From contig CAYXYK010000003.1 of assembly GCA_964469335.1 (NCBI GenBank), positions 3,315-67,314 of the forward strand: 64,000 nt of DNA, given 5' to 3'. This DNA is from an uncultured Candidatus Saccharibacteria bacterium. Lineage in GTDB: Bacteria > Patescibacteriota > Minisyncoccia > Phycocordibacterales > UBA6899. The translations under genes were made by a program, and so were the position numbers. The stretch's first letter is position 1; each line of letters opens with the position of its first letter. The notes below the pieces were generated by a model. The model was not told the DNA's origin and did no database searches. It saw only the letters and a list, made by a program, of their open reading frames with translations. Shown one piece after another: positions 44,295-62,493 of this stretch.

Positions 44295-45053
44295 ATGTAT
44301 AACGGGAAAAACCTCAAAATAGTCGCAACAATAGAGGCACGAATGACCTCTTCACGCCTTCCTGGGAAGGTGCTCCTTCCTATCGGGGGAGTTCCGGCAC
44401 TTGAGATGCTTGTCACAAGACTGAGACGGAGTAAGTACCTCGACGGCATCTGTGTCGCCACCACCGTGAACGAAGATGATGAGCCGATCGTGCAATTGAC
44501 GGAGAGACTTGGTGTCTCGAATTTCCGCGGGAGTGAGAGTGATGTACTCTCTCGGGTGCTCGGCGCTGCGCGGTCGATGTCTGCAGATATCATCGTCGAG
44601 ATCACCGGCGACTGCCCGTTCGTAGACCCTCTCCTGGTCGATCGCGCTGTCGAAGAGTTCTTTACGCACGAGGTCGATTATGCGTCGAATACCATCACTG
44701 CGACCTATGCCAACGGATTCGATGTGCAAGTGTTCCCGACAGCGATACTTGCTGAGGTGGACTCGCTGACACAGGACCCAGTTGATCGTACACATGTCTC
44801 ATACTATATCTATATGCATCCGGAGAAATATCGACTGCATAATTGGGTCGCGGATGCGGAAAGTCACGGCCCGGAACTCCGTATGACCCTCGATGAGGAT
44901 TCCGACTATCAAGCACTCCAGAGTGTCGCGGCAGCACTACTCCCCATTGATCCGAATTTCTCGGCGAAAGATGTGACGCAATATCTACGCGTACATCCAG
45001 AAGTGGTTGCACTGAATGCGAATGTGAGACAAAAAGAAGCAAATGAGCTATAA
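44295..45053 (+). CDS. SpsF-type (CTP_transf_3) cytidylyltransferase, paralog A
   Basis: KIVATIEARMTSSRLPGKVL matches the N-terminal signature of SpsF/acylneuraminate-cytidylyltransferase-family enzymes. Confidence 0.75.
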   Translation: MYNGKNLKIVATIEARMTSSRLPGKVLLPIGGVPALEMLVTRLRRSKYLDGICVATTVNEDDEPIVQLTERLGVSNFRGSESDVLSRVLGAARSMSADIIVEITGDCPFVDPLLVDRAVEEFFTHEVDYASNTITATYANGFDVQVFPTAILAEVDSLTQDPVDRTHVSYYIYMHPEKYRLHNWVADAESHGPELRMTLDEDSDYQALQSVAAALLPIDPNFSAKDVTQYLRVHPEVVALNANVRQKEANEL

Positions 45054-45165
45054 ACATCATCCATCAGCACCTCGTCTGCAGCGTTCCGGGGCCCCCGCGC
45101 CTCGTCACCGTACTCAAAGTACGGCTCCGTCGTCGCGCACCCCGCGCCTTGCATCCAAGATACTG

Positions 45166-46155
45166 ATGAATAATGTTTTGAAAAAGAAAGTTTATCGGAC
45201 TGTGATCATCGGGGCAGGACGCATCGCATCAACGTTCGATACACCTTCTTCGCGCCATGTCCTCACGCATGCGCATGCGATCACTGCGAATCCCAACTTC
45301 ACACTCCTCGCGATGAGTGATGTCGACGAGGTCCGCGGAAAGAAAGAGTCGAAGAAATGGGACTGTGTGTTCTTCACTGACACCGAACTGATGCTCGAGA
45401 GCGTGAAGCCCGACGTCGTCGTCATCGCATCTCCAGATTCGCTACATACCGAGCATCTTCTTCTCGCACTCCGGCATGGCCCTAAGCTCATCATTTGCGA
45501 AAAGCCCGTGGTCGCGAAGAAGGCTGAGATGGCAATGCTTGAACAGGCATTCAGAGGGTCAAAGGCCGCAGTGATCGTGAACTTCTCTCGACGTTTCGAT
45601 GCATCGGTGGGCGAGCTGCGTGATCTTCTCAGAAAAGGGAAATACGGGAAGATCATTTCAGCGAACGGGGTTTACACCAATGGAGTATTGCATAACGGCT
45701 CACATCTTTTCGACCTTGCCCGTTTCCTGTTCGGAGAAGTAAAAAGTGTACGCGGATATTCAGGTGTCCCTGATCACAATAAGGGAGATCCGAGTGTCTC
45801 CGGGTTCGCAACATTTCAGGATTGTCCCGAGTTTACCCTTATGACAGGAGACGAACGCCAATATGCGATATTCGAGCTAGAGATCATTACCGAAAAGAAG
45901 CGCATCCGATTCGAGAATTTCGGGCAGGAAATGGTAACACAGGATGTCGTACGCGATCCGATTTTCAAAGGATTCAAGGCCCTGTCAAAGCGAAAGGTGA
46001 CGATGACCAAGTTGGTGGACGCGATGCCGGAACTGTATCGTCACGCAGCAGAAGTCTTAAACAAGAAGAAGTCATCACGATCGTCACTTGCTGACGCGAT
46101 GAAGACCCAGGCGGCATGTTTCCGATTACTCGAAAGTATCACATCAAAAAAATAA
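45166..46155 (+). CDS. Gfo/Idh/MocA-family NAD(P)-dependent oxidoreductase
   Basis: YRTVIIGAGRIAS Rossmann motif and the IICEKPV block. I chose the ATG at 45166. The track start at 45043 adds a low-complexity Pro/Ser/Arg extension. Confidence 0.7.
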   Translation: MNNVLKKKVYRTVIIGAGRIASTFDTPSSRHVLTHAHAITANPNFTLLAMSDVDEVRGKKESKKWDCVFFTDTELMLESVKPDVVVIASPDSLHTEHLLLALRHGPKLIICEKPVVAKKAEMAMLEQAFRGSKAAVIVNFSRRFDASVGELRDLLRKGKYGKIISANGVYTNGVLHNGSHLFDLARFLFGEVKSVRGYSGVPDHNKGDPSVSGFATFQDCPEFTLMTGDERQYAIFELEIITEKKRIRFENFGQEMVTQDVVRDPIFKGFKALSKRKVTMTKLVDAMPELYRHAAEVLNKKKSSRSSLADAMKTQAACFRLLESITSKK

Positions 46156-46156
46156 T

Positions 46157-47467
46157 ATGGCGAAGCTTGCGATCAATGGGGGTGAACCAGTGCGTGCAAA
46201 GGACAGGCTCTTTCCCGCATACAACGGTATCGGTGAAGAAGAGAAAAATGCGGCGATGCGTGTGCTCAACTCCGGAGTGCTGTCGAAATATCTCGGGTGC
46301 TGGGATCCGGACTTCTATGGCGGTGCAGAGGTGCAGGCATTCGAGAAAGAGTGGGCAGTCAGATTCGGAGTGAAGCATGCGGTCGCGATGAACTCGGCGA
46401 CCTCGGGACTCATCGCGGCGGTCGGTGCACTCAATATCGAACCAGGTGACGAGATCATCGTCTCACCGTATTCGATGTGTGCCTCCGCGACCGTGCCACT
46501 CTGGTATGGTGCAGTACCGGTATTCGCGGATATCGAGCCGGAATATTTCTGCCTCGACCCGAAGTCAGTCGAAGCGGCCATCACTCCTCGCACCAAAGCG
46601 ATCATCGTCGTCGATATCTTCGGACAGCCATACGATGCGGATGCGATCAATGCGATCGCGAAGAAACATGGTATTGCGGTCATCGAGGATGCGGCACAGG
46701 TGCCAGGTGCATTCTATAAAGGACGCGCGGCAGGAACACTTGCCGACATCGGCGTGTATTCGCTCAACTACCACAAGCACATTCATACCGGAGAGGGGAC
46801 ACTCGTCGTCACCAATGATGACAAGCTCGCCGAGCGGCTGCAGCTCATCCGCAATCATGCCGAAGCGGTGGTCGAAGATAAGGGAGTATCTGACCTCACC
46901 AACATGGTCGGGCAGAACTATCGGCTCACTGAGATACAGGCGGCGATAGGGCGTGAGCAGCTCAAGAAGCTCGACAAACTGGTGAAGGAGCGTCAGGAGA
47001 ATTGCGCATACATCGCCGAGCACTGTCAGGACATGCCCGGTTTCCGTCCTGCGAAACTTCGCCCTGATTCGACCCATGTGTTCTATCAGCACCCATTCCT
47101 TTTCGATGAAACAGTTGTCGGTGTGTCGCGAGCGAAGTTCGTTGATGCGATCCGTGCTGAACTACCCGCTACACTGCTGCGCGAATCAGACGGTCCGCTG
47201 ATTTCCGGCGGTTACGTGAAGCCCATTTACCTGATGCCGATATTCGCGAAACAGATCGCATTCGGCACGAAGGGATACCCGTTCAAGTCCGAGTTTTACA
47301 AAGGAAAGACAAGGTACGAGAAGGGCATGTGTCCTGTCGTGGAAAATTTGCACGAGAAAGGATACGTTTCCCATGAGATGATGCGCCCAGGTATGACGAA
47401 GAGCGATCTCGATGATGTGATCGCGGCATTTCACAAGGTGTATGAGAATCGTAGTGAGATAATTTAA
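46157..47467 (+). CDS. DegT/DnrJ/EryC1/StrS-family PLP-dependent aminotransferase (long form)
   Basis: The segment SLNYHKHIHTGEG contains the PLP-Lys. The overall layout is DegT-family. Confidence 0.85.
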   Translation: MAKLAINGGEPVRAKDRLFPAYNGIGEEEKNAAMRVLNSGVLSKYLGCWDPDFYGGAEVQAFEKEWAVRFGVKHAVAMNSATSGLIAAVGALNIEPGDEIIVSPYSMCASATVPLWYGAVPVFADIEPEYFCLDPKSVEAAITPRTKAIIVVDIFGQPYDADAINAIAKKHGIAVIEDAAQVPGAFYKGRAAGTLADIGVYSLNYHKHIHTGEGTLVVTNDDKLAERLQLIRNHAEAVVEDKGVSDLTNMVGQNYRLTEIQAAIGREQLKKLDKLVKERQENCAYIAEHCQDMPGFRPAKLRPDSTHVFYQHPFLFDETVVGVSRAKFVDAIRAELPATLLRESDGPLISGGYVKPIYLMPIFAKQIAFGTKGYPFKSEFYKGKTRYEKGMCPVVENLHEKGYVSHEMMRPGMTKSDLDDVIAAFHKVYENRSEII

Positions 47468-47476: not shown

Positions 47477-48544
47477 ATGCAGAGAAAAACATTCGCAAAA
47501 GTTGCCTATCAGAAACACCCCGATGCTACCGGTGAGCGTATTGCCGCATCCCTCATGAACGGGGAAACGAAAGCGAGCAAGCAGGATGTGGAGATCGCAG
47601 AAGAGATCCTGAGGGTCCACGAATACCTCAAGAAGGAATCAGTGGCTACCGGAGAGTGGAAATGGATCAATGACAATAAGCGTGCAGGATATATGAAAGC
47701 ACTGAACGGAGGAGATAAGTTCATGCTTGCTGAATATCTCGCGAACATGTTCCGACGCGATGCCGCATATGGGATCATCACCGGCGACTACGAGGGGATC
47801 CAAAAGAAAGAACAACAGTTCGAGCTTGAGAATCAAGTGCTACTCGATCTTGATGTCCTCGCTGAGTTCGACGGCTCAACCGAAATGAAAACGAAGTGGC
47901 TCAAAGATCATTCCAAGTGCGGAAATCCATTCGGTTACCTGACCCAAAAGAATGAGCTCATCATCGCGGATGCTCCGCGTCATGTGTATTTCGCCAACAG
48001 ACTGCTCGGGCTGCTTGCTGATGCCAAGATCACAGCACCGACCGTTCTCGAGATCGGTGGCGGTTATGGTGGGCTGTGTCTTGAGACCATCCGTCGTGCG
48101 AAGTTCAAGAAGTTCCAATATATCGATTGTGATCTTCCCGAAACACTCTATATGGCGTACTTCTTCCTGAAGAAGGCACTCCCCAAAGGCACACGCATCG
48201 AATGGGCACTTGAGAAAGTACCGAATGCAGACGTCGTGCTCTTGCCTGCGCAGAAAAAACATCTCATCAAAAAAGCCGATCTAATGTTCAATGCGAACAG
48301 TCTCTCTGAGATGGGAAAACAGACTGTTTGGGAATACATCGCACTGCTACACAGACTCAAGCCGACCTATTTCTATCACCAGAACAGCAATTATGTGCTT
48401 TTCCCTGATTCCGTTCGTCACATCGAAGTGATCGCCTCAGAATTCCCAATTAAAGAAGCACTCTACAAGAAAGTATCGATGTCGCTCGTTCCTTGGCAGG
48501 GTGCAGGGGGGCGATATCGCGAGTATCTCTATAAAAAGAAATAA
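47477..48544 (+). CDS. putative SAM-dependent methyltransferase (sugar O-methyltransferase-like)
   Basis: Glycine-rich VLEIGGGYGGLCL motif I-like segment. The rest is unrecognised. Confidence 0.45.
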   Translation: MQRKTFAKVAYQKHPDATGERIAASLMNGETKASKQDVEIAEEILRVHEYLKKESVATGEWKWINDNKRAGYMKALNGGDKFMLAEYLANMFRRDAAYGIITGDYEGIQKKEQQFELENQVLLDLDVLAEFDGSTEMKTKWLKDHSKCGNPFGYLTQKNELIIADAPRHVYFANRLLGLLADAKITAPTVLEIGGGYGGLCLETIRRAKFKKFQYIDCDLPETLYMAYFFLKKALPKGTRIEWALEKVPNADVVLLPAQKKHLIKKADLMFNANSLSEMGKQTVWEYIALLHRLKPTYFYHQNSNYVLFPDSVRHIEVIASEFPIKEALYKKVSMSLVPWQGAGGRYREYLYKKK

Positions 48545-48546: not shown

Positions 48547-49212
48547 ATGGCACAAGAAAAAATATTTTTACAGAAAGAGGGAGACGCGTATTTCTCTCGG
48601 AACAAGAGCGATCTGGTCGACGGGAAATTCCCTGACCCGGTACTCTACCTCGTCTCTCAATACGGCATCAAGGCGAAGAAAGTACTCGATATCGGCTGTT
48701 CGAACGGAAGCAAGCTAGCTGCCATACTCGAAGCCTGCGGAGGAAAGGGAACCGGAGTCGAACCCGGGGCAAAAGCCATAGCAGACGGAAAAAAACGTTT
48801 CCCGAAGATCGACTTCAGGCGCGGTGTCGTGTCGGAGCTTCCGGTGAAGGGTACATTCGACCTCGTTACACTCATGTATGTGATGCACTGGGTCTCTCGT
48901 GGGGACCTGCTTAAGGCTGTTTCAGAGATCGATCGGGTGGTCTCGGATGGAGGGTATCTCATCATCGGCGACTTCGACCCGAACACTCCTGCGATGAGGA
49001 GGTATCACCATCTACCCAGTGATGAGGTATACACGTATAAACAAGACTATGCAGCGATATTCGCAGCAACACAGATATACCAACGCATCGCCCAGATGTC
49101 GTTCACGCATGCCGCGAACACCTTTGCTCCGGATCTTCATGGGGGGAACCGCGGAGTCGTGACGCTTTTACGAAAAGACCTCACCGGCAGATATCTTCGT
49201 GAAGATAAATGA
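48547..49212 (+). CDS. class I SAM-dependent methyltransferase (small, resembles nonulosonic-acid-cluster-associated methylases)
   Basis: VLDIGCSNGSKL motif I and LMYVMHWV...DGGYLIIGDFDP. Confidence 0.65.
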   Translation: MAQEKIFLQKEGDAYFSRNKSDLVDGKFPDPVLYLVSQYGIKAKKVLDIGCSNGSKLAAILEACGGKGTGVEPGAKAIADGKKRFPKIDFRRGVVSELPVKGTFDLVTLMYVMHWVSRGDLLKAVSEIDRVVSDGGYLIIGDFDPNTPAMRRYHHLPSDEVYTYKQDYAAIFAATQIYQRIAQMSFTHAANTFAPDLHGGNRGVVTLLRKDLTGRYLREDK

Positions 49213-50114
49213 GTAAAAGCGAACAAAAAGAGACACTCGTTTTCGCGCATGACGCAGGAGGAGCGGAGATCATCGCCGCCTATGTAGCGGCACATCCCGA
49301 GAAACCGTTCGCGTGCTATGTTGCCGGACCAGCAGTAAAAATCTTCGAGCGCCAGCGTGTTCCGGCAAGGAAGATTGATATAGTAAAGCAGGTAATTGAA
49401 GCGACAGTAGAAAAGCAACATGACGCGGCGCTTGTGCTTCTGGGTACCGGCTGGATGACGAAGATGGAAGCGTGGGCGCTTCACGCTGCTAAACAGAGAG
49501 GAATGAAGACCGCGTGCTACCTCGAGTCTTGGGTCAACTATCGTGAACGTTTCGGCTATCCTGAAAAAACATGGAAGGAGCGACTTCCTATCGAGATATG
49601 GGTCGGGGATGCATACGCGCAGACTCTCGCAGAGAAACTCTTTCCAGGTTCGCAGCGAATACGCTATGTACCCAATCAATACTTCAAACAGATCAAATTG
49701 CGCGCAAAGGAGATCCGTAGCACGGTGCCGCGAGGAAAGGGGATACTCTTTCTTTCGGACGCTGTCCCAGGTGTCGAGCGTTCACTCGAGAAGCTACTCC
49801 AATATGTCGCAAAGGAGCTGCCTGAGGAAACAGTACGTGTGAGCTTCCATCCGGCTGACCCGTCTGACCGATATGATGCCGTTATCGAGAAGTATGCAGA
49901 CATGGTTTCAGTGAATAAGGCAAAGGAAAAGGACATTGTCCGCAACCTTCTCTCAGCTCGGCTCGTTGTAGGAGCTGAGACGGTCGCACTCGTGGTTTCG
50001 GCGCTGCTTGGAATGCCGACCGTGTGTATTCTGTCAAAGAAAAGTCAGCGCAAGCTTCCACATCCAGGAATCCTTTATGTCAGAAACATGAAAGAAGCCG
50101 CTAACTTGATTTAA
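49209..50114 (+). CDS. hypothetical GT-B-like protein, candidate PseG/SpsG-like nucleotide-sugar hydrolase
   Basis: The two-lobe pattern (LVFAHDAGGAEII...GILFLSDAV...LLSARLVVGAETVALVVSALLGMPTVCIL) is reminiscent of GT28-C/PseG. Tentative. Confidence 0.35.
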   Translation: MSKSEQKETLVFAHDAGGAEIIAAYVAAHPEKPFACYVAGPAVKIFERQRVPARKIDIVKQVIEATVEKQHDAALVLLGTGWMTKMEAWALHAAKQRGMKTACYLESWVNYRERFGYPEKTWKERLPIEIWVGDAYAQTLAEKLFPGSQRIRYVPNQYFKQIKLRAKEIRSTVPRGKGILFLSDAVPGVERSLEKLLQYVAKELPEETVRVSFHPADPSDRYDAVIEKYADMVSVNKAKEKDIVRNLLSARLVVGAETVALVVSALLGMPTVCILSKKSQRKLPHPGILYVRNMKEAANLI

Positions 50115-50155: not shown

Positions 50156-51172
50156 ATGAAGGAAATCGATATTTTAGCAGGGAAAACCGTCCTCATTACC
50201 GGAGGAACTGGATCATTCGGAAAGAATTTCACCAAACATATTCTTGCCAATTCGAAACTAAAGAAACTCATCATCTTCTCCCGCGATGAGCTCAAGCAGT
50301 CAATGATGGAGAATGAGATCAAGGACGATCGTCTGCGCTTCTTTCTCGGTGACGTGCGTGACCTTCCTCGTCTAGAGCGCGCGTTCCATGGTGTTGATAT
50401 CGTCGTCCATGCTGCGGCACTCAAACAGGTTCCTGCGCTTGAGTATAATCCGTTCGAAGCCGTGAAGACCAACATCATGGGCAGCCAGAACATCATCGAC
50501 GCAGCCATAGATAACAATGTGCAGCAGGTCGTGCTCGTCTCGACAGACAAGGCAGCGATGCCGGTCAATCTCTATGGTTCGACCAAACTCTGTGCGGAGA
50601 AACTGATGACCGCGGCGAACTCATACGGAGGAGGGAACACCCGCTTCTCGGTGGTCCGCTACGGCAATGTAGTTGGTAGTCGCGGCAGTATCGTCGAGAC
50701 ACTAATCAAGAACCGTGATGCGAAGGTGGTGCATGTCACTGATGAGCGAATGACCCGTTTTTGGATCAATCTCGAGCAGGCTTTTGATATCGTCCTCTTC
50801 GCACTCACACATATGGACGGAGGAGAGATATTCATCCCGAAGGCGCCTTCAATGAAACTCACCGACCTATTCGATATCATCGTCCCAGAGGCAAAACGCA
50901 ATATCATCGGCATCCGCCCTGGAGAGAAGCTTCATGAGGTGTTGCTCACCCGAGAAGAAGCCCGCCATGCGGTCGATTTCGGCGACTACTATGTCGTCCT
51001 CCCGGAGAAGCACCCTCATCTCCACGACTCGACCCGTGGGCAAAAGTTCATGAAGCCCGGCAGTGCGCTCGGAGACGACTTCCATTTCTCCAGCGAAACG
51101 AATGAGAAACAGATGTCAAAAGAGCAGCTCCTTACTATTGTAAAGAATATCGAGAAACTAATTACCGGATAA
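50156..51172 (+). CDS. PseB/CapD/FlaA1-family UDP-GlcNAc 4,6-dehydratase
   Basis: LAGKTVLITGGTGSFGKNF, then IFSRDE...DVRD, VVHAAALK and YGSTK are hallmarks of the Polysacc_synt_2 (PseB/LegB) family. Confidence 0.85.
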   Translation: MKEIDILAGKTVLITGGTGSFGKNFTKHILANSKLKKLIIFSRDELKQSMMENEIKDDRLRFFLGDVRDLPRLERAFHGVDIVVHAAALKQVPALEYNPFEAVKTNIMGSQNIIDAAIDNNVQQVVLVSTDKAAMPVNLYGSTKLCAEKLMTAANSYGGGNTRFSVVRYGNVVGSRGSIVETLIKNRDAKVVHVTDERMTRFWINLEQAFDIVLFALTHMDGGEIFIPKAPSMKLTDLFDIIVPEAKRNIIGIRPGEKLHEVLLTREEARHAVDFGDYYVVLPEKHPHLHDSTRGQKFMKPGSALGDDFHFSSETNEKQMSKEQLLTIVKNIEKLITG

Positions 51173-51223: not shown

Positions 51224-52168
51224 ATGGAAAGCGAAACAAGAAAAAAAATTGAAAAGTATCCGACGCTTTGTAAGACATTCTTATACATCGAAAAGAATTC
51301 TGTTTTTTATAAGAATATCTTTGAGGCAAGCGTAACTATTCCGATTGACTACAGTACCGCAGAGCGTATTTGCTCCGACGCACTTCTCATGTGTTCCGGA
51401 GACTGGGAGGAATACACCAAGAGATTAAGAAATCTTTTTGAAATCAATTACGAGTTTCTTCAGTTACAGGATTTTCTCGAAAAGAATCGAAGATACCTTT
51501 ATACTTCATTCAAGGAGGTCGAAGAGAATGTGTTCAAAAAAGAGCGCACGAGTGGACTAGAAGGAGTCGAGTACCTCTGGGGAGTTTACTTCACAAACGT
51601 TTTTTGGGTGACACACCATCTGGCATTCATGTTCTTTATCGAGGAATTTGCGCGAAAATCACCCCTAAATGGAGTATGTCTTGAAGCGCCCACCGGGTCA
51701 GGAATCTTCCTTTCAAATTTTCTTGATGAACGTCCTCTGTGGAATGCTGAGAGCGTTGATATCAGCGAAACATCCAAGAGCTTTGCTACGAATCTTCACA
51801 ACATAAAACACACATCAGAACATGTCCGATTGTTGAATCAAGACATCTATAAATACACCAGCGATAAAAAATTCGACCGCATCATCAGTATGGAGTTCAT
51901 CGAGCACGTCGAAGATCCTGTTTCAATACTGAAAATATTGAAAAATTTACTTGCAGATGATGGTAAAATCTTCCTCACTACCGTTGCGTGGGCTGCGTTC
52001 ATAGATCATATCTATCTATACAAAAGTGCCGATGAGATCAGGGCTCATATTGCTGAAAGCGGGCTTCGTATCGAAAAGGAGTTGGTACAGAATATTTTCC
52101 CTAAGGATAAGGGGCGAACAGAAAACCGCGAAGTCGCGCTGAACTACTCTGCGATTCTTGTAAAATAA
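51224..52168 (+). CDS. class I SAM-dependent methyltransferase (C-terminal MT domain)
   Basis: VCLEAPTGSGIF motif I and FDRIISMEFIEHVEDP...DGKIFLTT. It is the first gene of the low-GC (about 40%) segment. Confidence 0.6.
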   Translation: MESETRKKIEKYPTLCKTFLYIEKNSVFYKNIFEASVTIPIDYSTAERICSDALLMCSGDWEEYTKRLRNLFEINYEFLQLQDFLEKNRRYLYTSFKEVEENVFKKERTSGLEGVEYLWGVYFTNVFWVTHHLAFMFFIEEFARKSPLNGVCLEAPTGSGIFLSNFLDERPLWNAESVDISETSKSFATNLHNIKHTSEHVRLLNQDIYKYTSDKKFDRIISMEFIEHVEDPVSILKILKNLLADDGKIFLTTVAWAAFIDHIYLYKSADEIRAHIAESGLRIEKELVQNIFPKDKGRTENREVALNYSAILVK

Positions 52169-52181
52169 TTCGATTGTAATT

Positions 52182-52958: not shown

Positions 52959-52977
52959 AGTAGATATGACACAAAAC

Positions 52978-54362: not shown

Positions 54363-54583
54363 AAACATTCAACAAGATAGTCTCAGAGCATTTTACTCTT
54401 GCAGAGAACGAAGTGACCGATGCACTCACTATGCATGATATACCAGGATGGGATTCAATGAATTTCCTACTTCTTATCGCGGACATTGAGAAAGAATTCG
54501 GTATGACGTTCACAATGGATGAAGTGCTCTCGTTCAATTCACTTGGCGATATTAGGAAGGTTCTCGAAGCGAAGGGGAAGTAA
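54359..54583 (+). CDS. acyl carrier protein
   Basis: About 75 aa with the GWDSMNFLLL motif (DSx, the phosphopantetheine-attachment serine). The start overlaps the upstream stop (ATGA). Confidence 0.75.
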   Translation: MKTFNKIVSEHFTLAENEVTDALTMHDIPGWDSMNFLLLIADIEKEFGMTFTMDEVLSFNSLGDIRKVLEAKGK

Positions 54584-54584
54584 C

Positions 54585-55013: not shown

Positions 55014-55016
55014 CCC

Positions 55017-55733
55017 ATGACAGAAAACAACAATAAACCTCTTTTAATCATCTCTGGCGGAACCGGTTATCTGGGTAGCATTATATCCTCACGATTTATT
55101 GAACATGGCTGGAAAGTTGCAACTCTCGGACGTACCCCAACCGCTGATTCCGCTTTGTCGTACTTATGTGATGTTACCGATGAAGAGAGCATAAAAAGTA
55201 CCATCCAGCAGATCGCAGAAACACATGGACGAATTGATGCATGCATTCATGCCGCGACGCTGCCCGTTGACGCAAAGACACCACTGCTTTCCTCCTCGGT
55301 CGAATCATTCGACGCGCAGGTCGCAGTTGCAGCACGTGGAGCATTCTTGTTGGCAAAGAGCGTGGTCCCTCTCATGGCTCATGACTCTGCGTTTATCGGA
55401 GTCACTTCTGCGCTCATCGAACCAAATGTAGTTTTGTCTCCAACGGGAGCTTATATATCTGCAAAGTATGCATTGCGCGGGTTTCTCCGGTCACTTGCAG
55501 CAGAGGTGGCAAGTAAGGGGGTGCGTGTTTACGCTGTCGCTCCGGGTTTTCTTCCCGGAGGGCTGAATAAGGGTCTTCCTGATGCAATAATCAAGTTTCT
55601 AGGCAAAAAAAGTGGTGCAGGGGACTCAACCCCTGAAGATGTTGCTGACGTCGTTTTAAAGATATGTACTGAACCAGCATTCTACGCATCGGGCTCTTCG
55701 ATTTCCATACCAGGCGGGATTTCTCCTCTCTAG
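55017..55733 (+). CDS. SDR-family oxidoreductase (3-oxoacyl-ACP reductase-like)
   Basis: LLIISGGTGYLGSII cofactor motif and YISAKYALRGF (YxxxK). Confidence 0.75.
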   Translation: MTENNNKPLLIISGGTGYLGSIISSRFIEHGWKVATLGRTPTADSALSYLCDVTDEESIKSTIQQIAETHGRIDACIHAATLPVDAKTPLLSSSVESFDAQVAVAARGAFLLAKSVVPLMAHDSAFIGVTSALIEPNVVLSPTGAYISAKYALRGFLRSLAAEVASKGVRVYAVAPGFLPGGLNKGLPDAIIKFLGKKSGAGDSTPEDVADVVLKICTEPAFYASGSSISIPGGISPL

Positions 55734-55928
55734 AATTTCCAAAAAACGAAGCGGGTTAAGTATATTAACCTTAGTGGGGGCACTTTTGGTTGGTAATTTC
55801 TTGAAACTATTCTTCATATAATTCTCATTAAAATCAGAGATAATTTTGTTATACACTTAATTTCTCACTCTTGTGGGTAATAGGTGAGGTCGATTAATGA
55901 GTTTCTCATTAGTAATTACCTTAATAAA

Positions 55929-57299
55929 ATGAAAAAAATAATAATTGGGTTTCTAAGTTTTTTGTTCATAATGTTACTTTCCCCAGTTCATGTTTTTGCA
56001 GCTATTACTTCTGACACCGGCGCAGCGTACACTGCATGTGTTAGTGGAACAACGTGTTCCTATTCGTATACAGTGGGAGCAATAACGGACCCTCTGCTTG
56101 TGTGCAGTAATAGCAACTTCAATGACGCTGATCCCGGTGCTGTGACCATGACCTATGGTGGCGTGAGCATGACACAAATTGGATCCAACCAATCCAAAAC
56201 AAGTGTCCCTGGGACATCCTATATGCAGACCTTCTACCTTGCGGGGGCAGCAACAGGAACACATACGCTTGCTATCACCACTACGAATTCTCAGAGCAAC
56301 GGTTTTTATGCACACTGTGTCTCTTACGGCGGAGTCAATCAAAGCACACCAATTGAAGCATACACTCAGCAGGTTGATGTGAATGTGGCAGTGAACACTG
56401 ATATTCCTGCTACTGTCACTACTCTTACAGATGGTGCATGGGTGGGGATGATGGCAACAGATGTCTATGCTCGCACTGTCGTAGCTGGAGCCAGTACGAC
56501 CAAAATCACAGGCTGCTCAGATGCGCAGGCCGACTGTTTTGACACAAATGGACCTGTTAGCCCGGCAGGGAATAGAACACTCAATGTGAAATACACAAAT
56601 GGCACCCTTGACTCCTTCATAATCACGGCGTACGCGATCAAGCCAGTGGAAGTTTATCGTGACACCGGCGCAGCGTACACTGCATGTGTTAGTGGAACAA
56701 CGTGTTCCTATTCGTATACAGTGGGAGCAATAACGGACCCTCTGCTTGTGTGCAGTAATAGCAACTTCAATGACGCTGATCCCGGTGCTGTGACCATGAC
56801 CTATGGTGGCGTGAGCATGACACAAATTGGATCCAACCAATCCAAAACAAGTGTCCCTGGGACATCCTATATGCAGACCTTCTACCTTGCGGGGGCAGCA
56901 ACAGGAACACATACGCTTGCTATCACCACTACGAATTCTCAGAGCAACGGTTTTTATGCACACTGTGTCTCTTACGGCGGAGTCAATCAAAGCACACCAA
57001 TTGAAGCATACACTCAGCAGGTTGATGTGAATGTGGCAGTGAACACTGATATTCCTGCTACTGTCACTACTCTTACAGATGGTGCATGGGTGGGGATGAT
57101 GGCAACAGATGTCTATGCTCGCACTGTCGTAGCTGGAGCCAGTACGACCAAAATCACAGGCTGCTCAGATGCGCAGGCCGACTGTTTTGACACAAATGGA
57201 CCTGTTAGCCCGGCAGGGAATAGAACACTCAATGTGAAATACACAAATGGCACCCTTGACTCCTTCATAATCACGGCGTACGCGATCAAGCCAGCCTAG
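55929..57299 (+). CDS. secreted protein composed of two identical 216-aa tandem modules
   Basis: Signal peptide MKKIIIGFLSFLFIMLLSPVHVFA. The module DTGAAYTACVSGTTCSY...ITAYAIKP occurs twice, rich in Thr/Ser/Gly/Cys. There is an AT-rich promoter region upstream. Confidence 0.7.
   Translation: MKKIIIGFLSFLFIMLLSPVHVFAAITSDTGAAYTACVSGTTCSYSYTVGAITDPLLVCSNSNFNDADPGAVTMTYGGVSMTQIGSNQSKTSVPGTSYMQTFYLAGAATGTHTLAITTTNSQSNGFYAHCVSYGGVNQSTPIEAYTQQVDVNVAVNTDIPATVTTLTDGAWVGMMATDVYARTVVAGASTTKITGCSDAQADCFDTNGPVSPAGNRTLNVKYTNGTLDSFIITAYAIKPVEVYRDTGAAYTACVSGTTCSYSYTVGAITDPLLVCSNSNFNDADPGAVTMTYGGVSMTQIGSNQSKTSVPGTSYMQTFYLAGAATGTHTLAITTTNSQSNGFYAHCVSYGGVNQSTPIEAYTQQVDVNVAVNTDIPATVTTLTDGAWVGMMATDVYARTVVAGASTTKITGCSDAQADCFDTNGPVSPAGNRTLNVKYTNGTLDSFIITAYAIKPA
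56013..57294. repeat. perfect tandem direct repeat, 2 x about 634 bp at 648-bp period, inside the CDS
   Basis: 56013-56646 is identical to 56661-57294. Both + and - strand spurious ORFs recur with identical translations at a 648-bp offset (56179 vs 56827; 55974 vs about 56622). Confidence 0.9.
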
Positions 57300-57443: not shown

Positions 57444-58511
57444 ATGACAACGCGCTTCTCCAAAACATTCAAAGTCGGCGACCGACTCGTCGGCGAGGGC
57501 CAGCCGGCACTCGTCATTGCTGACCTCGGCGGTAATTTCGACGGAAGTATCGAAAAGGCAAAGAAATTGGCAAAGCAGGTGAAGGATGCAGGCGGCGATG
57601 TGGTGAAGATCCAGAGTTTCCTCGCTGACAAGATCGTTTCCGGAAAAGGCTTCGCTTCGATGAAGCTCAAGGGCGTGCACGGCAGCTGGGGAAAGCCTGT
57701 CGAAGAAGTGTTCAAGTCAGCTGAGTTCCCACGCGAGTGGCACAAGGAGTTCTTCGATTACTGTAAGGAGATAGGCATTCTCGCCACTTCGAGTCCGTAT
57801 GATTATGAAGCAGTAGATATTTTGGACGAGGCAGGTGTGCCGTTCTACAAGATCGGTTCCGGTGACATCACCTGGCTCGAGATGATCGAGTACATCGCAA
57901 AGAAAGGGAAGCCCGTCGTCCTCGCGACCGGCGCAGCGACCCTTTCAGAAGTCGATGAGGCGCTCAAGGTGATCGAGTCGACCGGCAACAAGGAGATCGC
58001 ACTTCTTCAGTGCATCACCAACTATCCGTCCAAGGTCGAGAGCGCGAACATCAAAGTAATGGATACCTACAAGACTGCCTTCGACATCATGGTAGGGTAC
58101 TCTGATCACACCTACTCTGACACTGTCGTACTTGGTGCGGTCGCTCGCGGAGCAAAGGTGATCGAGAAACATTTCACCGACAGCAAGAAGAACGCAGGCC
58201 CTGATCATCCCCACTCGATGGAACCGCAGCAGTTCGCCGATATGATGGTACGTATCCGTGACATGGAGGCCGCTCTTGGATCGAGCAGGAAAGAGGTCGT
58301 CGCAGAAGAATCGGAGACTGTCGTCGTCCAGCGCCGCTCCCTCTATGCGTCGGCGGATATCAAGAAAGGCGAGAAGGTCGGTGTCGAGCGTATCATCGAG
58401 CTTCGTCCTGCGCTCGGGATATATCCGAAATATAAGAAGCAGGTAGGAGGACTCACCGCGGCGAAGGATATTAAGAAAGGGGAGGCTATCTACTGGGACT
58501 CCTTAGCATAA
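57444..58511 (+). CDS. NeuB-family nonulosonic-acid synthase (sialic/pseudaminic/legionaminic acid synthase-like)
   Basis: N-terminal TIM-barrel block LVIADLGGNFDGSIEKAKKLAKQVKDAGGDVVKIQSF. The C-terminal SAF domain is ...RRSLYASADIKKGEKV. AAAGGA Shine-Dalgarno precedes the ATG. Confidence 0.85.
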   Translation: MTTRFSKTFKVGDRLVGEGQPALVIADLGGNFDGSIEKAKKLAKQVKDAGGDVVKIQSFLADKIVSGKGFASMKLKGVHGSWGKPVEEVFKSAEFPREWHKEFFDYCKEIGILATSSPYDYEAVDILDEAGVPFYKIGSGDITWLEMIEYIAKKGKPVVLATGAATLSEVDEALKVIESTGNKEIALLQCITNYPSKVESANIKVMDTYKTAFDIMVGYSDHTYSDTVVLGAVARGAKVIEKHFTDSKKNAGPDHPHSMEPQQFADMMVRIRDMEAALGSSRKEVVAEESETVVVQRRSLYASADIKKGEKVGVERIIELRPALGIYPKYKKQVGGLTAAKDIKKGEAIYWDSLA

Positions 58512-58689: not shown

Positions 58690-59277
58690 ATGGATGAACG
58701 AGAAAAATTCGTTGAATTACTTTCGCAGCATCAGCCGAAAAAAGCTGATGTGATCGTACTTCTGGCCGGCGACCGATATCACCGTGTGAAAAAAGTCGCC
58801 GATCTCTATCATGGAGGATATGCTCCAAAGGTCGCGGTAACTTCGAGCGCAGACAACTGGGACTATGGGTCACTTCCGTCGAGTAAGCTCGTTCCTGAGC
58901 TTATTACACTTGAGATCCCGAACGAACACATCGTATGGGAAGAGACCGGACCACATACTCGTGCCGAAGCGGACTCAACGCTGCGAATGGCAAAAGAACA
59001 CGGCTGGAAGTCGCTCATTCTCGTCACAACCGAATATCACTCATATCGAGCCTTCCTCACATGGCTCAAAGCGATGCATGACAATGGTGCTGACATCGAA
59101 CTCAGCGTCGCCGCTGTTCAGGACTTCCCGGATTTCTACAATGAGACCCGAGAGGACGCGCTCATCCGTGAGTTCCAGAAGATTGCGCTCTATGGCGAAA
59201 AAGGAGACATTGCTTCGTACAAGGACGGCATCACCTATCTTTCGAGGGAGACCACTCATGTTAGTATAGATCCATGA
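58690..59277 (+). CDS. DUF218 (YdcF/ElyC/SanA-like) domain protein
   Basis: ADVIVLLAGDRYHRV...ILVTTEYHSYRAF pattern is typical of DUF218. Start chosen at ATG 58690. Confidence 0.55.
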   Translation: MDEREKFVELLSQHQPKKADVIVLLAGDRYHRVKKVADLYHGGYAPKVAVTSSADNWDYGSLPSSKLVPELITLEIPNEHIVWEETGPHTRAEADSTLRMAKEHGWKSLILVTTEYHSYRAFLTWLKAMHDNGADIELSVAAVQDFPDFYNETREDALIREFQKIALYGEKGDIASYKDGITYLSRETTHVSIDP

Positions 59278-59606
59278 GTGACGAACCGAACACATTGACC
59301 GAAGCGGAAGAGAAGGCGATGGTTGGTATCCTCTACAATCATCTCGCTTTTGCTACGACGATGGAGATGTTCGGTGAGCTAGGTGAGGGAGGCGTGACGC
59401 GCATCGAAAATCTGCGGGCGACACTCACGAAGCTACTGAGGAAATATGACCTCGCAACAGCGCTCCCTAAGGAGACCTTTCTACTCTTAGGCCTCACCGA
59501 ATTCCTCGCCAGTGAAGACCTGAAGACTTGGAGTATGCTCGAAACTAATAAGCATATGCAGAATCGTGCGAAATACTTTATTACGAAACTGGAGCAAAAG
59601 AAATGA
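59274..59606 (+). CDS. hypothetical protein (110 aa)
   Basis: ORF translationally coupled to flanking genes. No motif recognised. Confidence 0.45.
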   Translation: MSDEPNTLTEAEEKAMVGILYNHLAFATTMEMFGELGEGGVTRIENLRATLTKLLRKYDLATALPKETFLLLGLTEFLASEDLKTWSMLETNKHMQNRAKYFITKLEQKK

Positions 59607-59607: not shown

Positions 59608-60246
59608 ATGAAATGGCAAGATGCAAAGATCATAATGGGAAAGCACTTCATCGGGCCCGATGAACTTTCCGCTGTTTCCGATGAACTCGGGATCAAAGAA
59701 GTCGTCGGAGCGCCAAACGTTCCGTATGACGAAAAGACGTTGAGCAAATTGGCGAAGGACTATCTATTGATACTCGGAGTTCCTAAAACGAAGCACGGGA
59801 CTCCACTCACACTTACTGCACTGCGCTCACGTTATGGTGTCGACCCGAACATCTCTGAACCGTGTCTCTACAATCAGGACTGGTACCTTAACGAGAAGTT
59901 CGCGAATACAACAACACTCAAGTCGCGCTGGTATCTTGTCCGCAAGAATGTCCTCAAGGAATCGCGTAGTGTTCGTCCTGACATCACCCTCAAGAAACTC
60001 AAGAAAGGAGAGGATTTCCCGACAGCGATACTCGCCACATTCACGTTCTTCGCTTACTACAATCTGACCGGTGGGCAGTTGCTCTGGAAACATGATTTCA
60101 TCTGGTGTAGCGACAAGGACAAGAACGGTGACAGGATATATGTCGGCAGATATCATGACCCGAAGAAAGTGAACAAGAACGGATTCAACATTCATCGTCA
60201 TCTTTCGCTCCGCTCTGTACATGCTGCGACCATCGTGCGGATATAA
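59608..60246 (+). CDS. hypothetical protein (212 aa)
   Basis: ATG 59608 lies immediately after the upstream stop. No motif recognised. Confidence 0.45.
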   Translation: MKWQDAKIIMGKHFIGPDELSAVSDELGIKEVVGAPNVPYDEKTLSKLAKDYLLILGVPKTKHGTPLTLTALRSRYGVDPNISEPCLYNQDWYLNEKFANTTTLKSRWYLVRKNVLKESRSVRPDITLKKLKKGEDFPTAILATFTFFAYYNLTGGQLLWKHDFIWCSDKDKNGDRIYVGRYHDPKKVNKNGFNIHRHLSLRSVHAATIVRI

Positions 60247-60263: not shown

Positions 60264-61592
60264 ATGAAAAAAACACGACAACTCAAGACAGGAAAGTCGC
60301 AACGACTTTGGAAAGAAGCAAAGAAGGTCATCCCCGGCGGCTCACAGCTGCTTTCGAAGCGTGCTGAGATGGCACTTCCCGAACTCTGGCCGGCATATTT
60401 CTCCAAAGCAAAAGGAGTCGAGGTGACAGACCTCGATGGGAACACGTATATCGATATGACCCATATGTCGGTCGGCTCCTGTACGCTCGGCTATCGTGAC
60501 CCCGACGTGAATAGTGCGGTGAAAAAAGCAATCGATAAGGGCACGATGACAACACTCAATGCACCAGAGGAAGTAGAGCTTGCGAGCGTGCTCCTGAAAC
60601 TCCATCCATGGGCTGGCATGGTCCGCTACGCACGTGCAGGAGGCGAAGCGATGTCGATAGCGATCCGTATCGCACGCGCAGCCTCAGGGAGAGATAAGGT
60701 TGCCTTCTGTGGCTATCATGGCTGGCATGATTGGTATCTTTCGACCAATCTCTCGTCGGCCAAGAATCTCGACGGGCAGCACCTGTCAGGGCTATCGACT
60801 GTCGGAGTGCCGAAACACCTTGCTGATACTGCACTCCCGTTCCACTACAACCGTATCGACGAACTGGAAGAGATACTCCGGCAGAACGATGTCGGTGTCA
60901 TAGTGATGGAGACCATCCGTCACCAGGAACCGAAAGATGACTTTCTTCAAAAAGTCCGCGCGCTCGCGACCAAGCATAATTGCGTGCTCGTCTTTGACGA
61001 GATATCCGCGGGATTCCGACTTACACTCGGCGGAGCACACCTACTCTATGGCGTGGACCCTGATATCGCAGTGTTCAGTAAAGCGATATCGAACGGCTAC
61101 CCGATGTCAGCGATCATCGGTAGGAGCGAGGTGATGGATGTAGCGCAGGAGAGTTTCATCTCGAGTACTTACTGGACCGAGCGGGTCGGGCTCGTCGCCG
61201 CACTTGCGACCATCGACAAGATGAAAAAAAAGAATGTCTCCCGCCACCTCGAAAAGATCGGAACACTCATCGAGAAAGGCTGGATCGCCGCAGCAAAGAA
61301 ACATGGTCTCACTATCGAAACTGAAGGACCGATGTGTCTTGTGTCGCTGGCATTCAAATATCCGAACGCGCAGGAAGTGAAGACGCTGTTCACTCAGGAG
61401 ATGCTCCGCAGGGGATTTCTCGCAGGTCTTTCGGTGTATGTGAGTTACGCGCACAAGGAACTCCATGTGAAAAAATATATGAAAGCGATCGATGAGGTCT
61501 TTGCCATCCTTGCGCTAGCTATCGCAGAAGGGAACGTCAAGGAGCTGCTTGAGGGGCCTGTGGCACATTCTGGCTTCGCTCGCCTTACTTAA
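60264..61592 (+). CDS. class-III PLP-dependent aminotransferase (glutamate-1-semialdehyde aminomutase-like)
   Basis: VLVFDEISAGFR...GVDPDIAVFSKAISNGYPMSAIIG contains the class-III PLP-Lys block. Confidence 0.8.
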   Translation: MKKTRQLKTGKSQRLWKEAKKVIPGGSQLLSKRAEMALPELWPAYFSKAKGVEVTDLDGNTYIDMTHMSVGSCTLGYRDPDVNSAVKKAIDKGTMTTLNAPEEVELASVLLKLHPWAGMVRYARAGGEAMSIAIRIARAASGRDKVAFCGYHGWHDWYLSTNLSSAKNLDGQHLSGLSTVGVPKHLADTALPFHYNRIDELEEILRQNDVGVIVMETIRHQEPKDDFLQKVRALATKHNCVLVFDEISAGFRLTLGGAHLLYGVDPDIAVFSKAISNGYPMSAIIGRSEVMDVAQESFISSTYWTERVGLVAALATIDKMKKKNVSRHLEKIGTLIEKGWIAAAKKHGLTIETEGPMCLVSLAFKYPNAQEVKTLFTQEMLRRGFLAGLSVYVSYAHKELHVKKYMKAIDEVFAILALAIAEGNVKELLEGPVAHSGFARLT

Positions 61593-61716
61593 GATTTTAT
61601 TTTTGGCGCACTACTCGTCTTTCCTTTTTCAGGTTCGGAGACAGTATATGCGAATACAGCCTCACGAACACTGAAAAAGTCCAACACTTCGTATTGCATC
61701 CAAAAAATAAAATCTT
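61591..61716 (+). repeat. nested inverted-repeat element (16/17-bp AT-rich outer arms plus 9-bp inner arms) in intergenic region
   Basis: AAGATTTTATTTTTGG at 61591-61606 pairs with CCAAAAAATAAAATCTT at 61700-61716. Inner CCTTTTTCAG at 61623-61632 pairs with CTGAAAAAG at 61671-61679. Confidence 0.4.
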
Positions 61717-61731
61717 TGCTATTATTCGTCC

Positions 61732-62493
61732 ATGACAAAAGTTGTTGCGATCATTCAAGCTCGGCTCGGCTCCACACGACTCCCTGGAAAGGTGCTCATG
61801 GAAGTGGAAGGGAAGACAGTCCTCGAACGTGTGGTCGAGCGTACCCGCCATGCAAAGAAAATAGACAGTGTCGTGGTCACGATGCCGACATCAGAACGTG
61901 ACGATACGCTCGCGAAATTCTGTGAAGAGAAAGGGATACCGTTCTACCGCGGGAAAGAAGAAGATCTGCTCGGGCAGTATGTTGCTGCAGCAGAAAAGGA
62001 ACATGCGACCCATATCGTGCGCATCACCGCCGATTGCCCGCTGATCGACCCTGAGATCATCGATCAGGCGATCGAGAGATTCTTCTCCGGTGAACTCGAC
62101 TATCTTTCGACCGGGCGTTTGGTGACAACATACCCTGATGGACTAGACACCGAAGTGTTCACTAAAGCTGCGTTGCTTCGTGCCGCGGATGAGGCGAAAC
62201 TCCCGAGTGAGCATGAACATGTCACTCCGTACATATGGAATCACCCCGAACTCTTCCGCATCGCTACGCTCGAATATGAGCGTGACCTTTCGACATTACG
62301 ATGGACCGTCGATGAACCGCGCGACCTCGAGTTCGTGCGTGCGGTCTATCACGAACTCGCCGGTAGGGACGTGTTCCCAATGAACGACGTTCTGGGCGTA
62401 CTCACCAAGAAACCTGAGCTCGGGAATATCAATTCGGATATCACACGGAATTCCGGATACTACAAATCATTGCGCGAAGAGAGAGGTGCGTAG
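61732..62493 (+). CDS. SpsF-type (CTP_transf_3) cytidylyltransferase, paralog B
   Basis: KVVAIIQARLGSTRLPGKVL N-terminal signature. It is collinear with the gene at 44295. Confidence 0.75.
   Translation: MTKVVAIIQARLGSTRLPGKVLMEVEGKTVLERVVERTRHAKKIDSVVVTMPTSERDDTLAKFCEEKGIPFYRGKEEDLLGQYVAAAEKEHATHIVRITADCPLIDPEIIDQAIERFFSGELDYLSTGRLVTTYPDGLDTEVFTKAALLRAADEAKLPSEHEHVTPYIWNHPELFRIATLEYERDLSTLRWTVDEPRDLEFVRAVYHELAGRDVFPMNDVLGVLTKKPELGNINSDITRNSGYYKSLREERGA

Follow-up and report, generated by a model that had tools for sequence, protein, structure and literature searches.

A divergent nonulosonic acid locus of an uncultured Saccharibacteria bacterium, with an apparent exchange of N-acetylation for a carrier protein-dependent acylation cassette

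How are the amines of a nonulosonic acid acylated by a locus in which no N-acetyltransferase of the expected type is found? This question is raised by a 64,000-nucleotide stretch of contig CAYXYK010000003.1 from an uncultured Candidatus Saccharibacteria bacterium (assembly GCA_964469335.1), which we refer to hereafter as the window. The whole of the window is a surface-glycan locus, with many glycosyltransferases and at least nine methyltransferases, and within it positions 44295-62493 form a single co-directional chain of approximately 22 genes on the forward strand. An initial annotation of this chain, made from the sequence alone, described a gene set for the biosynthesis of a nonulosonic acid of the pseudaminic (Pse) or legionaminic (Leg) type, lacking a PseH/LegH-type GNAT N-acetyltransferase and carrying an AAC(3)-family acyltransferase in its stead. 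Our analyses identify the chain as a nonulosonic acid locus, and suggest that it is probably a divergent pseudaminic-type cluster whose N-acetylation step has given way to an imported acylation cassette, dependent on an acyl carrier protein (ACP) and arranged around an AAC(3)-fold transferase.

The identification as a nonulosonic acid locus is made because the chain combines a PseB dehydratase, a NeuB-family synthase and cytidylyltransferases with an adjacent PF05159-type transferase and a Wzx flippase (Table 1). All of the genes named in the initial annotation are present at the positions given there, with ManC lying just beyond the end of the chain (we regard ManC as part of the glycan locus, outside the nonulosonate pathway). 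However, that annotation overlooked the AcpS, FkbH, ACP, MaoC and SDR genes, which explain the cargo of the AAC(3)-like enzyme. The flippase and the PF05159 transferase lie directly upstream of the chain in divergent orientation; the former is syntenic with the cluster in six related loci (L008, L013, L014, L019, L022, L101), and the latter stands beside it in 11 of the 28 long loci defined below. The PF05159 transferase also has a weak match to NF046086, the BFO_1060 family, which is named after a Tannerella forsythia protein implicated as a transferase for a nonulosonic acid derivative (PMC5420450), and it may be the enzyme that transfers the CMP-activated sugar. Several JGI metagenomes and one SRA run contain near-identical contigs, and hence the sequence is not an assembly oddity; one locus, L001, differs from the window at 9 of 16,557 positions, and continues downstream with a Wzy_C/TPR protein followed by MurB.

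The reported absence of a PseH/LegH-type GNAT is borne out by our searches. Pfam models detected no GNAT or hexapeptide acetyltransferase in open reading frames (ORFs) of at least 150 aa across the window, and a hidden Markov model (HMM) of 29 GNATs from sister loci together with canonical PseH found no match among six-frame ORFs of at least 30 aa (best E = 1.5). For comparison we used related loci, numbered with the prefix L. A metagenome scan seeded solely on the family of G6, a GT-B-fold protein of the chain, gave 259 confirmed stretches, of which 80 were kept; these, along with other fetched loci, were annotated by phmmer searches with the proteins of the window (L012 and L008 represent one contig). 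L021 is the nearest relative, with orthologues that share 62-83% identity with those of the window, G6 being only 48% identical. Its gene order is DegTL-G6-PseB-GNAT-synthase-DUF218-g17-g18, where DegTL is a long DegT aminotransferase. The window has, between PseB and the synthase and at the exact position of the L021 GNAT, a 6.1-kb series of genes, g8-AAC(3)-AcpS-FkbH-ACP-MaoC-SDR-g14 (51224-57299). The GC content of this series is 0.41-0.49 and its GC content at third codon positions (GC3) 0.40-0.48, against GC3 values of 0.62 in the flanking PseB gene and 0.67 in that for the synthase. A more distant twin, L101, shares the overall architecture of the window, including an upstream trio of genes discussed below, but has a GNAT and no cassette.

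This low-GC block of 6.1 kb is most likely a horizontally acquired cassette that replaces the GNAT gene. That the AAC(3)-like enzyme, which the initial annotation named in place of a GNAT, takes over the task of the acetyltransferase is best supported by the occupation of the GNAT position of L021. The three methyltransferases described there as flanking the pathway are likewise present, although one of them, g8 (GC 0.406; absent from both L021 and L101), belongs to the imported cassette. At the other end of the cassette, the gene of g14 (456-471 aa) contains a perfect tandem duplication of 648-nt period, the sequence of 56012-56646 recurring unchanged at 56660-57294. This was detected with a repeat search and a script, the period exceeding the limit of Tandem Repeats Finder, and further assemblies of this population have the gene at the same length.

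The AAC(3)-like enzyme shares a Pfam family (PF02522) with the AAC(3) aminoglycoside N-acetyltransferases and with FrbF, an enzyme that acetylates a CMP-linked amine, and these are also its nearest solved structures. Unlike the resistance enzymes, however, it scores only 79.6 against a cut-off of 270 on the AAC_3 resistance equivalog (NF033082), belongs to a separate subfamily that occurs mostly in metagenome bins of Patescibacteria, and has a predicted acyl-ACP donor where theirs is acetyl-CoA. On sequence grounds we consider it a member of the fold family and not a resistance enzyme. Wherever this subfamily was seen, its gene has AcpS close behind it: AcpS is the very next gene in four independent architectures (those of the window, L008, L009 and L013), and in L014 it lies two genes beyond. 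The accompanying acyl-loading genes differ among these loci, being FkbH-ACP-MaoC-SDR in the window and L009, and an HMGL-like gene with an AMP-binding ligase in L008, L013 and L014. It is because the adjacency to AcpS persists while the acyl-loading genes vary that we predict a dependence on ACP, whereby the AAC(3)-like enzyme would take its acyl group from the carrier protein. The gene lies between DegTL and G6 in L008 and L013, where the intervening genes include AcpS and acyl-activating genes, and directly after DegTL in L014. Furthermore, homologues that are only 31-36% identical (L010, L016 and L017, from bins labelled Rhodospirillales, Bacteroidia and others) adjoin a longer FkbH and a MaoC-SDR fusion, and in each of these loci homologues of the synthase or of a cytidylyltransferase are present.

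The set of genes required for FkbH-type formation of glyceryl-ACP is complete in the window: the FkbH-like protein retains the domain and both the HAD motif DLDNTLW and the motif SCRVIGRG with the active-site cysteine, the ACP has its GWDSM serine motif, and an AcpS is present. The ACP was, in addition, called as a gene with a weak PF00550 match in L001-L005, which are other assemblies of the same population. A loading logic involving a dehydratase, a ketoreductase, FkbH and an ACP has been proposed for the lactate starter units of some polyketide synthases; our literature search on FkbH together with bryostatin and lactate found nothing citable. The window resembles such systems in that its FkbH passes the domain model and is accompanied by a discrete ACP, a phosphopantetheinyl transferase, a dehydratase and a ketoreductase. 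It differs from them in that the proteins are free-standing and no ketosynthase is present, and in that the acyl group is predicted to pass to a sugar amine via an AAC(3)-fold transferase.

Under the reading we favour, PseB and the divergent synthase, along with DUF218, g18, a class-III pyridoxal phosphate (PLP) enzyme and the SpsF-type cytidylyltransferases, would provide a CMP-activated 9-deoxy diamino nonulosonic acid, which the adjacent PF05159-type transferase and Wzx flippase would then use. AcpS would activate the ACP, onto which FkbH would load a glyceryl unit derived from a glycolytic intermediate. MaoC could dehydrate the 3-hydroxyl of glyceryl-ACP to the enol of pyruvoyl-ACP, and the SDR could reduce the latter to lactyl-ACP, or alternatively the unit may remain glyceroyl. 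The g8 methyltransferase may O-methylate the acyl group, and the AAC(3)-like enzyme would move it to the sugar amine that is the target of the GNAT in sister loci. We consequently predict a nonulosonic acid whose N-acetyl group is replaced by one of the N-(O-methyl)lactyl or N-glyceroyl type, and further O- or N-methylation may be possible through the two other methyltransferases.

A known system with which this prediction can be compared is the Cj1295-Cj1304 locus of Campylobacter jejuni NCTC 11168, which we take to hold ACP and methyltransferase genes and an AAC(3)-like enzyme in Cj1296/7. In this flagellar glycosylation locus an N-acetyltransferase gene, Cj1296/7 (PMC3068675), accompanies an FkbH-domain gene, cj1302 (PMC7099621), and the product is 7-acetamido-5-(2,3-di-O-methylglyceroyl)amino pseudaminic acid (PMC3068675, PMC7099621). 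By gene descriptions, therefore, both are nonulosonate loci with an FkbH-domain gene and an N-acetyltransferase gene, and the C. jejuni product bears an O-methylated three-carbon hydroxy-acyl group on nitrogen, as predicted here. However, the di-O-methylglyceroyl product requires the aminopeptidase-like Cj1295 (PMC3068675), and the window has no gene of this type, although L010 does (a DUF4910/DUF2172 aminopeptidase-like gene). Moreover, the window adds MaoC and SDR, predicting a group of the lactyl rather than the glyceroyl type. Tannerella forsythia makes an N-glyceroyl pseudaminic acid, Pse5Am7Gra, for which the genetics of the glyceroyl group have been described as unknown (PMC5378307).

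Several points weigh against the reading we favour. The acyl group and the acceptor amine are both deduced from genomic context alone, and the products of MaoC and SDR could instead be a 3-hydroxyacyl group. Three loci (L009, L025 and L011) carry a GNAT and the AAC(3) cassette together, so the cassette is possibly an addition and not a replacement, and may acylate a different amine from that acted upon by the GNAT. Finally, the chain contains two cytidylyltransferases but a single synthase.

An alternative explanation, which we consider unlikely, is that of a plain pseudaminic acid pathway, in which g7 is PseB, g3 (DegTL) is PseC, the AAC(3)-like enzyme substitutes for PseH, g6 is PseG, g15 is PseI and g1/g20 are PseF, the remaining genes decorating the product. 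The dehydratase, first described as PseB/CapD-like, is indeed a true PseB (TIGR03589, 437.9 versus a cut-off of 407.75), and as in the canonical CMP-pseudaminic acid pathway of Campylobacter and Helicobacter it is accompanied by a NeuB-family synthase of the type that condenses phosphoenolpyruvate and by a CTP_transf_3 enzyme, within a surface-glycan locus. The best NCBIfam model for g3 is, moreover, PseC, and those for g15 are PseI and NeuB. Nevertheless, PseB is the only enzyme in the window to pass its curated Pse-pathway model, and the others miss theirs by wide margins: on the PseC model g3 scores 213, and a second aminotransferase, DegT365, 240 (cut-off 423.5); g15 scores 304.3 on PseI (cut-off 340.25) and 312.9 on NeuB (cut-off 399.65); g20 scores 25.7 on PseF (cut-off 205.7), to which g1 has no match; and g6 matches neither the PseG model nor any Pfam or NCBIfam model. 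The legionaminic models fare no better, with 57.5 versus 475 for LegB, and 170 for g3 and 281 for DegT365 versus 420 for LegC. Thus the gene set described in the initial annotation stands as a nonulosonate locus, whereas a one-to-one mapping onto the Pse pathway does not: five of its six defining enzymes are not recognised by the curated models, there is no GNAT, and the window adds a Gfo/Idh/MocA oxidoreductase (Gfo), DegTL, G6, DUF218, g18, the class-III PLP enzyme and a second cytidylyltransferase.

The synthase and the cytidylyltransferases repay closer consideration. The NeuB-like protein with an SAF domain belongs to the NeuB family, as originally stated, but lies outside the PseI clade, forming a clade of its own in a neighbour-joining tree, apart from the enzymes that pass the PseI model; it is 31-36% identical to PseI-clade enzymes, and judged from these comparisons it is a nonulosonate synthase of a divergent clade. 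The two cytidylyltransferases, CTPa (g1) and CTPb (g20), are confirmed as paralogues (37% identical), yet both fail the PseF model. The best PDB match of CTPa is an uncharacterised cytidylyltransferase (6oew, 148 bits). In related loci its gene follows that of the synthase and alternates with canonical PseF, a pattern that can be cited in favour of a plain Pse pathway, and since the two never occur in the same Pse set CTPa is probably the CMP-nonulosonate synthetase, a PseF equivalent. CTPb is paired with an aminotransferase in L008, L018, L019, L028 and L101.

The equation of DegTL with PseC and of G6 with PseG, both proposed in the initial annotation, is contradicted by their distribution. 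The 28 long loci (12 kb or more, with G6 as the sole seed) all contain DegTL, and Gfo occurs in 26, and a synthase and a cytidylyltransferase in 23 each. DegTL and G6 occur together in 68 loci and are adjacent in approximately 24, the order is G6-Gfo-DegTL in 11, and the gene between DegTL and G6 is a GNAT in 23 loci and a formyltransferase in one. In about half of the loci a cytidylyltransferase forms part of the unit (CTPa-Gfo-DegTL or CTPa-G6-Gfo-DegTL), and amidotransferases of the WbuX type, acting on N-acetyl sugars, often follow it (10 of the 28 long loci). Several of these loci hold canonical Pse enzymes: the PseC equivalog is passed in L008 and L018 (461-473 bits), PseI in L018 (464), PseF in L070, L081 and L097 (279-337 bits), PseG in the same three loci and in L063 and L072 (237-307 bits), and PseH in L097 (148 bits), PseH being elsewhere fused to PseG. 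By homology, genes of the PseB, PseC and PseI types complete these sets, a PseC-type homologue adjoining PseB in L070, L081 and L097. Where they stand beside bona fide PseC and PseG, DegTL and G6 are therefore distinct from these two enzymes, and a different ancestral function is implied for both families. A plain Pse pathway also leaves no role for Gfo, the constant companion of DegTL. In its favour, nothing else in the window or in L021 stands out as a candidate for the steps of PseC and PseG. Among the PseG genes in these loci we further observed a domain fusion with a formyltransferase (L070:4317-6104) and fusions with PseH (L081:5091-6602 and L072:4169-5884).

Comparisons with solved structures point in the same direction. 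DegTL matches Fic25 (222 bits), perosamine synthase (176), KdnA (166) and WbpE (136) above PseC (2fn6, 130), is nearer to perosamine synthase, 2-deoxy-scyllo-inosose aminotransferase and KdnA than to PseC, and is about as similar to KdnA, which aminates Kdo at C8, as to any sugar-nucleotide enzyme. With its failure on the PseC model and its co-occurrence with true PseC, these scores led us to reject DegTL as PseC. G6 is predicted with confidence to adopt a GT-B fold (pLDDT 92.7) that is closest to UDP-sugar 2-epimerases, with PseG among the structural matches, as a plain Pse pathway would have it; a profile of the G6 family had no match among PDB sequences. In its modelled structure G6 thus resembles nucleotide-sugar 2-epimerases or hydrolases, rather than PseG. 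Taken together, the distribution of these genes indicates that Gfo-DegTL-(acyltransferase)-G6 is an add-on unit to CMP-pseudaminic acid synthesis in the canonical loci.

What might such a unit do? The ElaABC system of Acinetobacter baumannii KL49, which epimerises CMP-Leg5,7Ac2 at C8, comprises a CTP-transferase (ElaB), a Gfo/Idh/MocA enzyme modelled as oxidising the C8 hydroxyl (ElaA) and an SDR that reduces the resulting ketone (ElaC) (PMC13656337). In gene order the two systems are alike, for in each a nonulosonate cluster contains a CTP-transferase gene with that of a Gfo/Idh/MocA oxidoreductase after it. Here, however, the partner of the oxidoreductase is a PLP aminotransferase, and the unit has no ElaC-type SDR, so the predicted outcome is amination and not epimerisation. 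By analogy with ElaB/ElaA, and with KdnB/KdnA acting on Kdo, Gfo may oxidise a hydroxyl of the (CMP-)sugar and DegTL transaminate it, yielding an extra amine that would be N-acylated by whichever enzyme occupies the slot between DegTL and G6. We give about one half of our confidence to oxidation and amination of this Ela- or Kdn-like kind, about one quarter to the Wbp-like route considered below and the rest to other functions. The Ela-like model assigns no task to G6, whose predicted epimerase-like fold would fit the Wbp-like rival better.

More specifically, and quite tentatively, the unit, which occurs in at least 259 metagenomic stretches, may convert a (CMP-)5,7-diamino nonulosonic acid into an undescribed triamino sugar, for example an 8-amino-8-deoxy derivative, bearing a swappable acetyl, formyl or ACP-borne acyl group (in the window an O-methylated lactyl or glyceroyl group). 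If so, ultrasmall episymbiotic bacteria would possess a cassette-swappable and hypervariable surface sugar. A literature search on pseudaminic acid with MocA and aminotransferase returned only an Aeromonas survey and a database preprint.

The Wbp pathway consists of a C3 dehydrogenase, an aminotransferase, an N-acetyltransferase and a 2-epimerase of the Epimerase_2 family. A doubtful alternative is that the Gfo-DegTL-acyltransferase-G6 unit is a WbpB/WbpE/WbpD/WbpI-type route on a UDP-sugar, proceeding by C3 oxidation, transamination, N-acylation (with the AAC(3)-like enzyme acylating the 3-amino group) and 2-epimerisation to a 2,3-diamino-2,3-dideoxy hexose, which would be a second component of the same glycan. 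The four-gene logic agrees with this and gives G6 a role, and the WbuX-type amidotransferases that follow the unit may be counted in its favour. On the other hand, G6 has no match to Pfam Epimerase_2 or to any family model (Pfam found no Epimerase_2 or Hexapep protein in ORFs of at least 150 aa in the window), Gfo has only a weak N-terminal match to UDP-GlcNAc 3-dehydrogenase (47.9 versus 450), and DegTL scores lower with WbpE than with KdnA, resembling WbpE no more than it does other DegT enzymes. Furthermore, a CMP-type cytidylyltransferase is interleaved with the unit in about half of the loci, and a synthase lies within 10 kb in 23 of the 28 G6-seeded loci, which would be unexpected of an independent hexose pathway. 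We rejected, on chemical grounds, a variant in which a 3-amino hexose feeds the synthase, for C3 of the hexose becomes C6 of the nonulosonate, the hydroxyl of which closes the pyranose ring.

It is very improbable that the FkbH-ACP-MaoC-SDR-AcpS-AAC(3) block is unrelated to the sugar and was inserted by chance, whether as a small cassette for a secondary metabolite or for lipid modification, or as an aminoglycoside-resistance gene and its passengers. In favour of this, the block is compositionally foreign, PF02522 is named for antibiotic resistance, and polyketide starter units are typically made with FkbH, ACP, dehydratase and ketoreductase functions. However, its AAC(3) enzyme falls far below the resistance cut-off, the neighbourhood contains neither a ketosynthase nor a condensation enzyme, the block coincides with the position of the sugar N-acetyltransferase of L021, and AAC(3) homologues, even the most divergent, lie in PseB/synthase/cytidylyltransferase loci of five architectures and several phyla (L015, in which no such neighbour was seen, is the sole exception).

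The remaining genes of the backbone place the window in a group of loci that we term type B (the window, L101, L021, L009/L025/L011, L019 and L022). These share PseB, a synthase of the separate clade, DUF218, g18, an aminotransferase of class III or DegT type and a second cytidylyltransferase; canonical PseC, PseF, PseG, PseH and PseI are found in none of them. The class-III PLP enzyme has PDB matches to glutamate-semialdehyde (GSA) aminomutases and aminoglycoside C-6' aminotransferases, and its position is held by a DegT-type aminotransferase in L019 and L022. DUF218 lies beside the synthase in L009, L018, L019, L021, L022 and L101, and together g18 and DUF218 always flank it, while homologues of g17 occur in L021 (75% identity), L019 and L027. 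The g18 family comprises 728 homologues and has no Pfam model; identity is 50-72% among the best 120, Cys86, Cys167 and His196 are invariant, and the named members all belong to the Patescibacteria. A profile of the family matched nothing among PDB sequences, and the predicted structure has a weak and distant match to the fold of formylglycine-generating enzyme (FGE) and C-type lectins; we considered g18 as the missing hydrolase or acyltransferase, but this weak resemblance is all that was found and does not support either role. The named closest homologues of g9, G6 and g18 come from Patescibacteria bins (Kaiserbacteria, Saccharibacteria, Uhrbacteria, Niyogibacteria, Staskawiczbacteria and others), and a literature search pairing Patescibacteria with nonulosonates found no paper joining the two among its 15 best matches.

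Nonulosonic acids are key surface determinants in recognition by hosts, phages and immune systems, and the genetic basis of their unusual N-acyl groups, such as glyceroyl and di-O-methylglyceroyl, has been termed 'a major challenge' (PMC5378307). The exchange of a GNAT for a cassette of FkbH, ACP and AAC(3)-fold genes constitutes a natural experiment that makes ACP-dependent N-acylation testable, and points to AAC(3)-fold enzymes as putative sugar N-acyltransferases with carrier-protein donors. It also exposes a widespread and uncharacterised unit of Gfo, aminotransferase and GT-B protein attached to pseudaminic acid clusters, and suggests a heavy investment by Patescibacteria in variable, sialic acid-like surface sugars, of relevance to host attachment.

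Table 1 Features of the nonulosonic acid chain and its immediate flanks, in order of position in the window (SAM, S-adenosylmethionine; PMI, phosphomannose isomerase)
Feature	Position	Strand	Matches (bits)	Remarks
DegT365 (365 aa), sugar C-methyltransferase, N-formyltransferase	36689-39899	-		Trio
Wzx/MOP-family flippase	41159-42694	-	PF13440 221.7; NF007773 MOP flippase 157.6
PF05159 (Capsule_synth, KpsS/KpsC-like) glycosyltransferase	42691-44199	-	PF05159 35.5
SpsF-type cytidylyltransferase CTPa (g1)	44295-45053	+	PF02348 (CTP_transf_3) 93.5
Gfo/Idh/MocA oxidoreductase (g2)	45043-46155	+	PF01408 60.7
Long DegT aminotransferase DegTL (g3)	46157-47467	+	PF01041 289	436 aa
NanM-like putative sugar O-methyltransferase	47477-48544	+	TIGR04371 74 (cut-off 44)
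Class I SAM methyltransferase	48547-49212	+	Methyltransf_25 56; Methyltransf_11 55
GT-B-fold protein G6 (g6)	49209-50114	+		301 aa
Inverting UDP-GlcNAc 4,6-dehydratase PseB (g7)	50156-51172	+	TIGR03589 437.9 (cut-off 407.75); PF02719 312
SAM methyltransferase (g8)	51224-52168	+	Methyltransf_23 53	First gene of low-GC cassette
AAC(3)-family (Antibiotic_NAT) protein (g9)	52182-52958	+	PF02522 106.8 (cut-off 25)
AcpS-type phosphopantetheinyl transferase	52966-53328	+	PF01648 57; TIGR00556 71 (cut-off 45)
FkbH-like protein (g11)	53325-54362	+	TIGR01686 296.5 (cut-off 146.65)
Acyl carrier protein	54359-54583	+		74 aa; GWDSM serine motif
MaoC-type (R)-hydratase/dehydratase	54585-55013	+	PF01575 65.5
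SDR, FabG-like ketoreductase	55017-55733	+	PF13561 121.6; TIGR01830 86.6 (below its cut-off)
Secreted-looking protein (g14)	55929-57299	+	No family match	Last gene of low-GC block
NeuB-family synthase with SAF domain (g15)	57444-58511	+	PF03102 271
DUF218 protein	58690-59277	+	PF02698 41
110-aa protein (g17)	59274-59606	+	No family match
Conserved Patescibacteria protein (g18)	59608-60246	+		Distant FGE/C-type-lectin-like fold
Class-III (glutamate-semialdehyde-aminomutase-like) PLP enzyme	60264-61592	+	PF00202 158
SpsF-type cytidylyltransferase CTPb (g20)	61732-62493	+	PF02348 95.8
ManC (GDP-mannose pyrophosphorylase/PMI)	62505-63941/63977	-	TIGR01479 523 (cut-off 373)

Both methyltransferases between DegTL and G6 have orthologues in L101 (51% identity for the NanM-like enzyme). 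Further upstream, at 35567-39899, a dehydratase on the forward strand precedes the reverse-strand trio of DegT365, C-methyltransferase and N-formyltransferase. The trio also flanks L101, and homologues of its C-methyltransferase and DegT365 lie within or beside the Gfo-DegTL-G6 unit in L059-L061, L082, L083 and L087; the trio may consequently be a part of the nonulosonate system and not of an independent pathway for an N-formyl C-methyl deoxyhexose.

Elsewhere in the window, two genes at the 5' end of the glycan locus encode a coupling ATPase of VirD4/TraG-like type (3117-5273) and a protein with a lamin-tail domain (5345-6241), and an exact-protein look-up of the glycosyltransferase at 10958-12160 returned no record. 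Two tandem short genes resembling UDP-glucose/GDP-mannose dehydrogenases (17257-19049; 311 and 283 aa) have no match to the C-terminal domain, and a third copy at 33879-35564 is fused to a SAM methyltransferase domain (561 aa). SAM methyltransferases are unusually dense (at least nine) at 19069-32036, a region that also holds a radical-SAM protein (19604-21535), a polysaccharide deacetylase, GtrA and an asparagine-synthase-like amidotransferase (27988-29859), and whose content suggests a heavily methylated and amidated glycan. Finally, a 615-aa GT1 ORF at 39340-41187, read from a TTG start, overlaps the opposite-strand formyltransferase gene by approximately 560 nt, and its real start probably lies further downstream.

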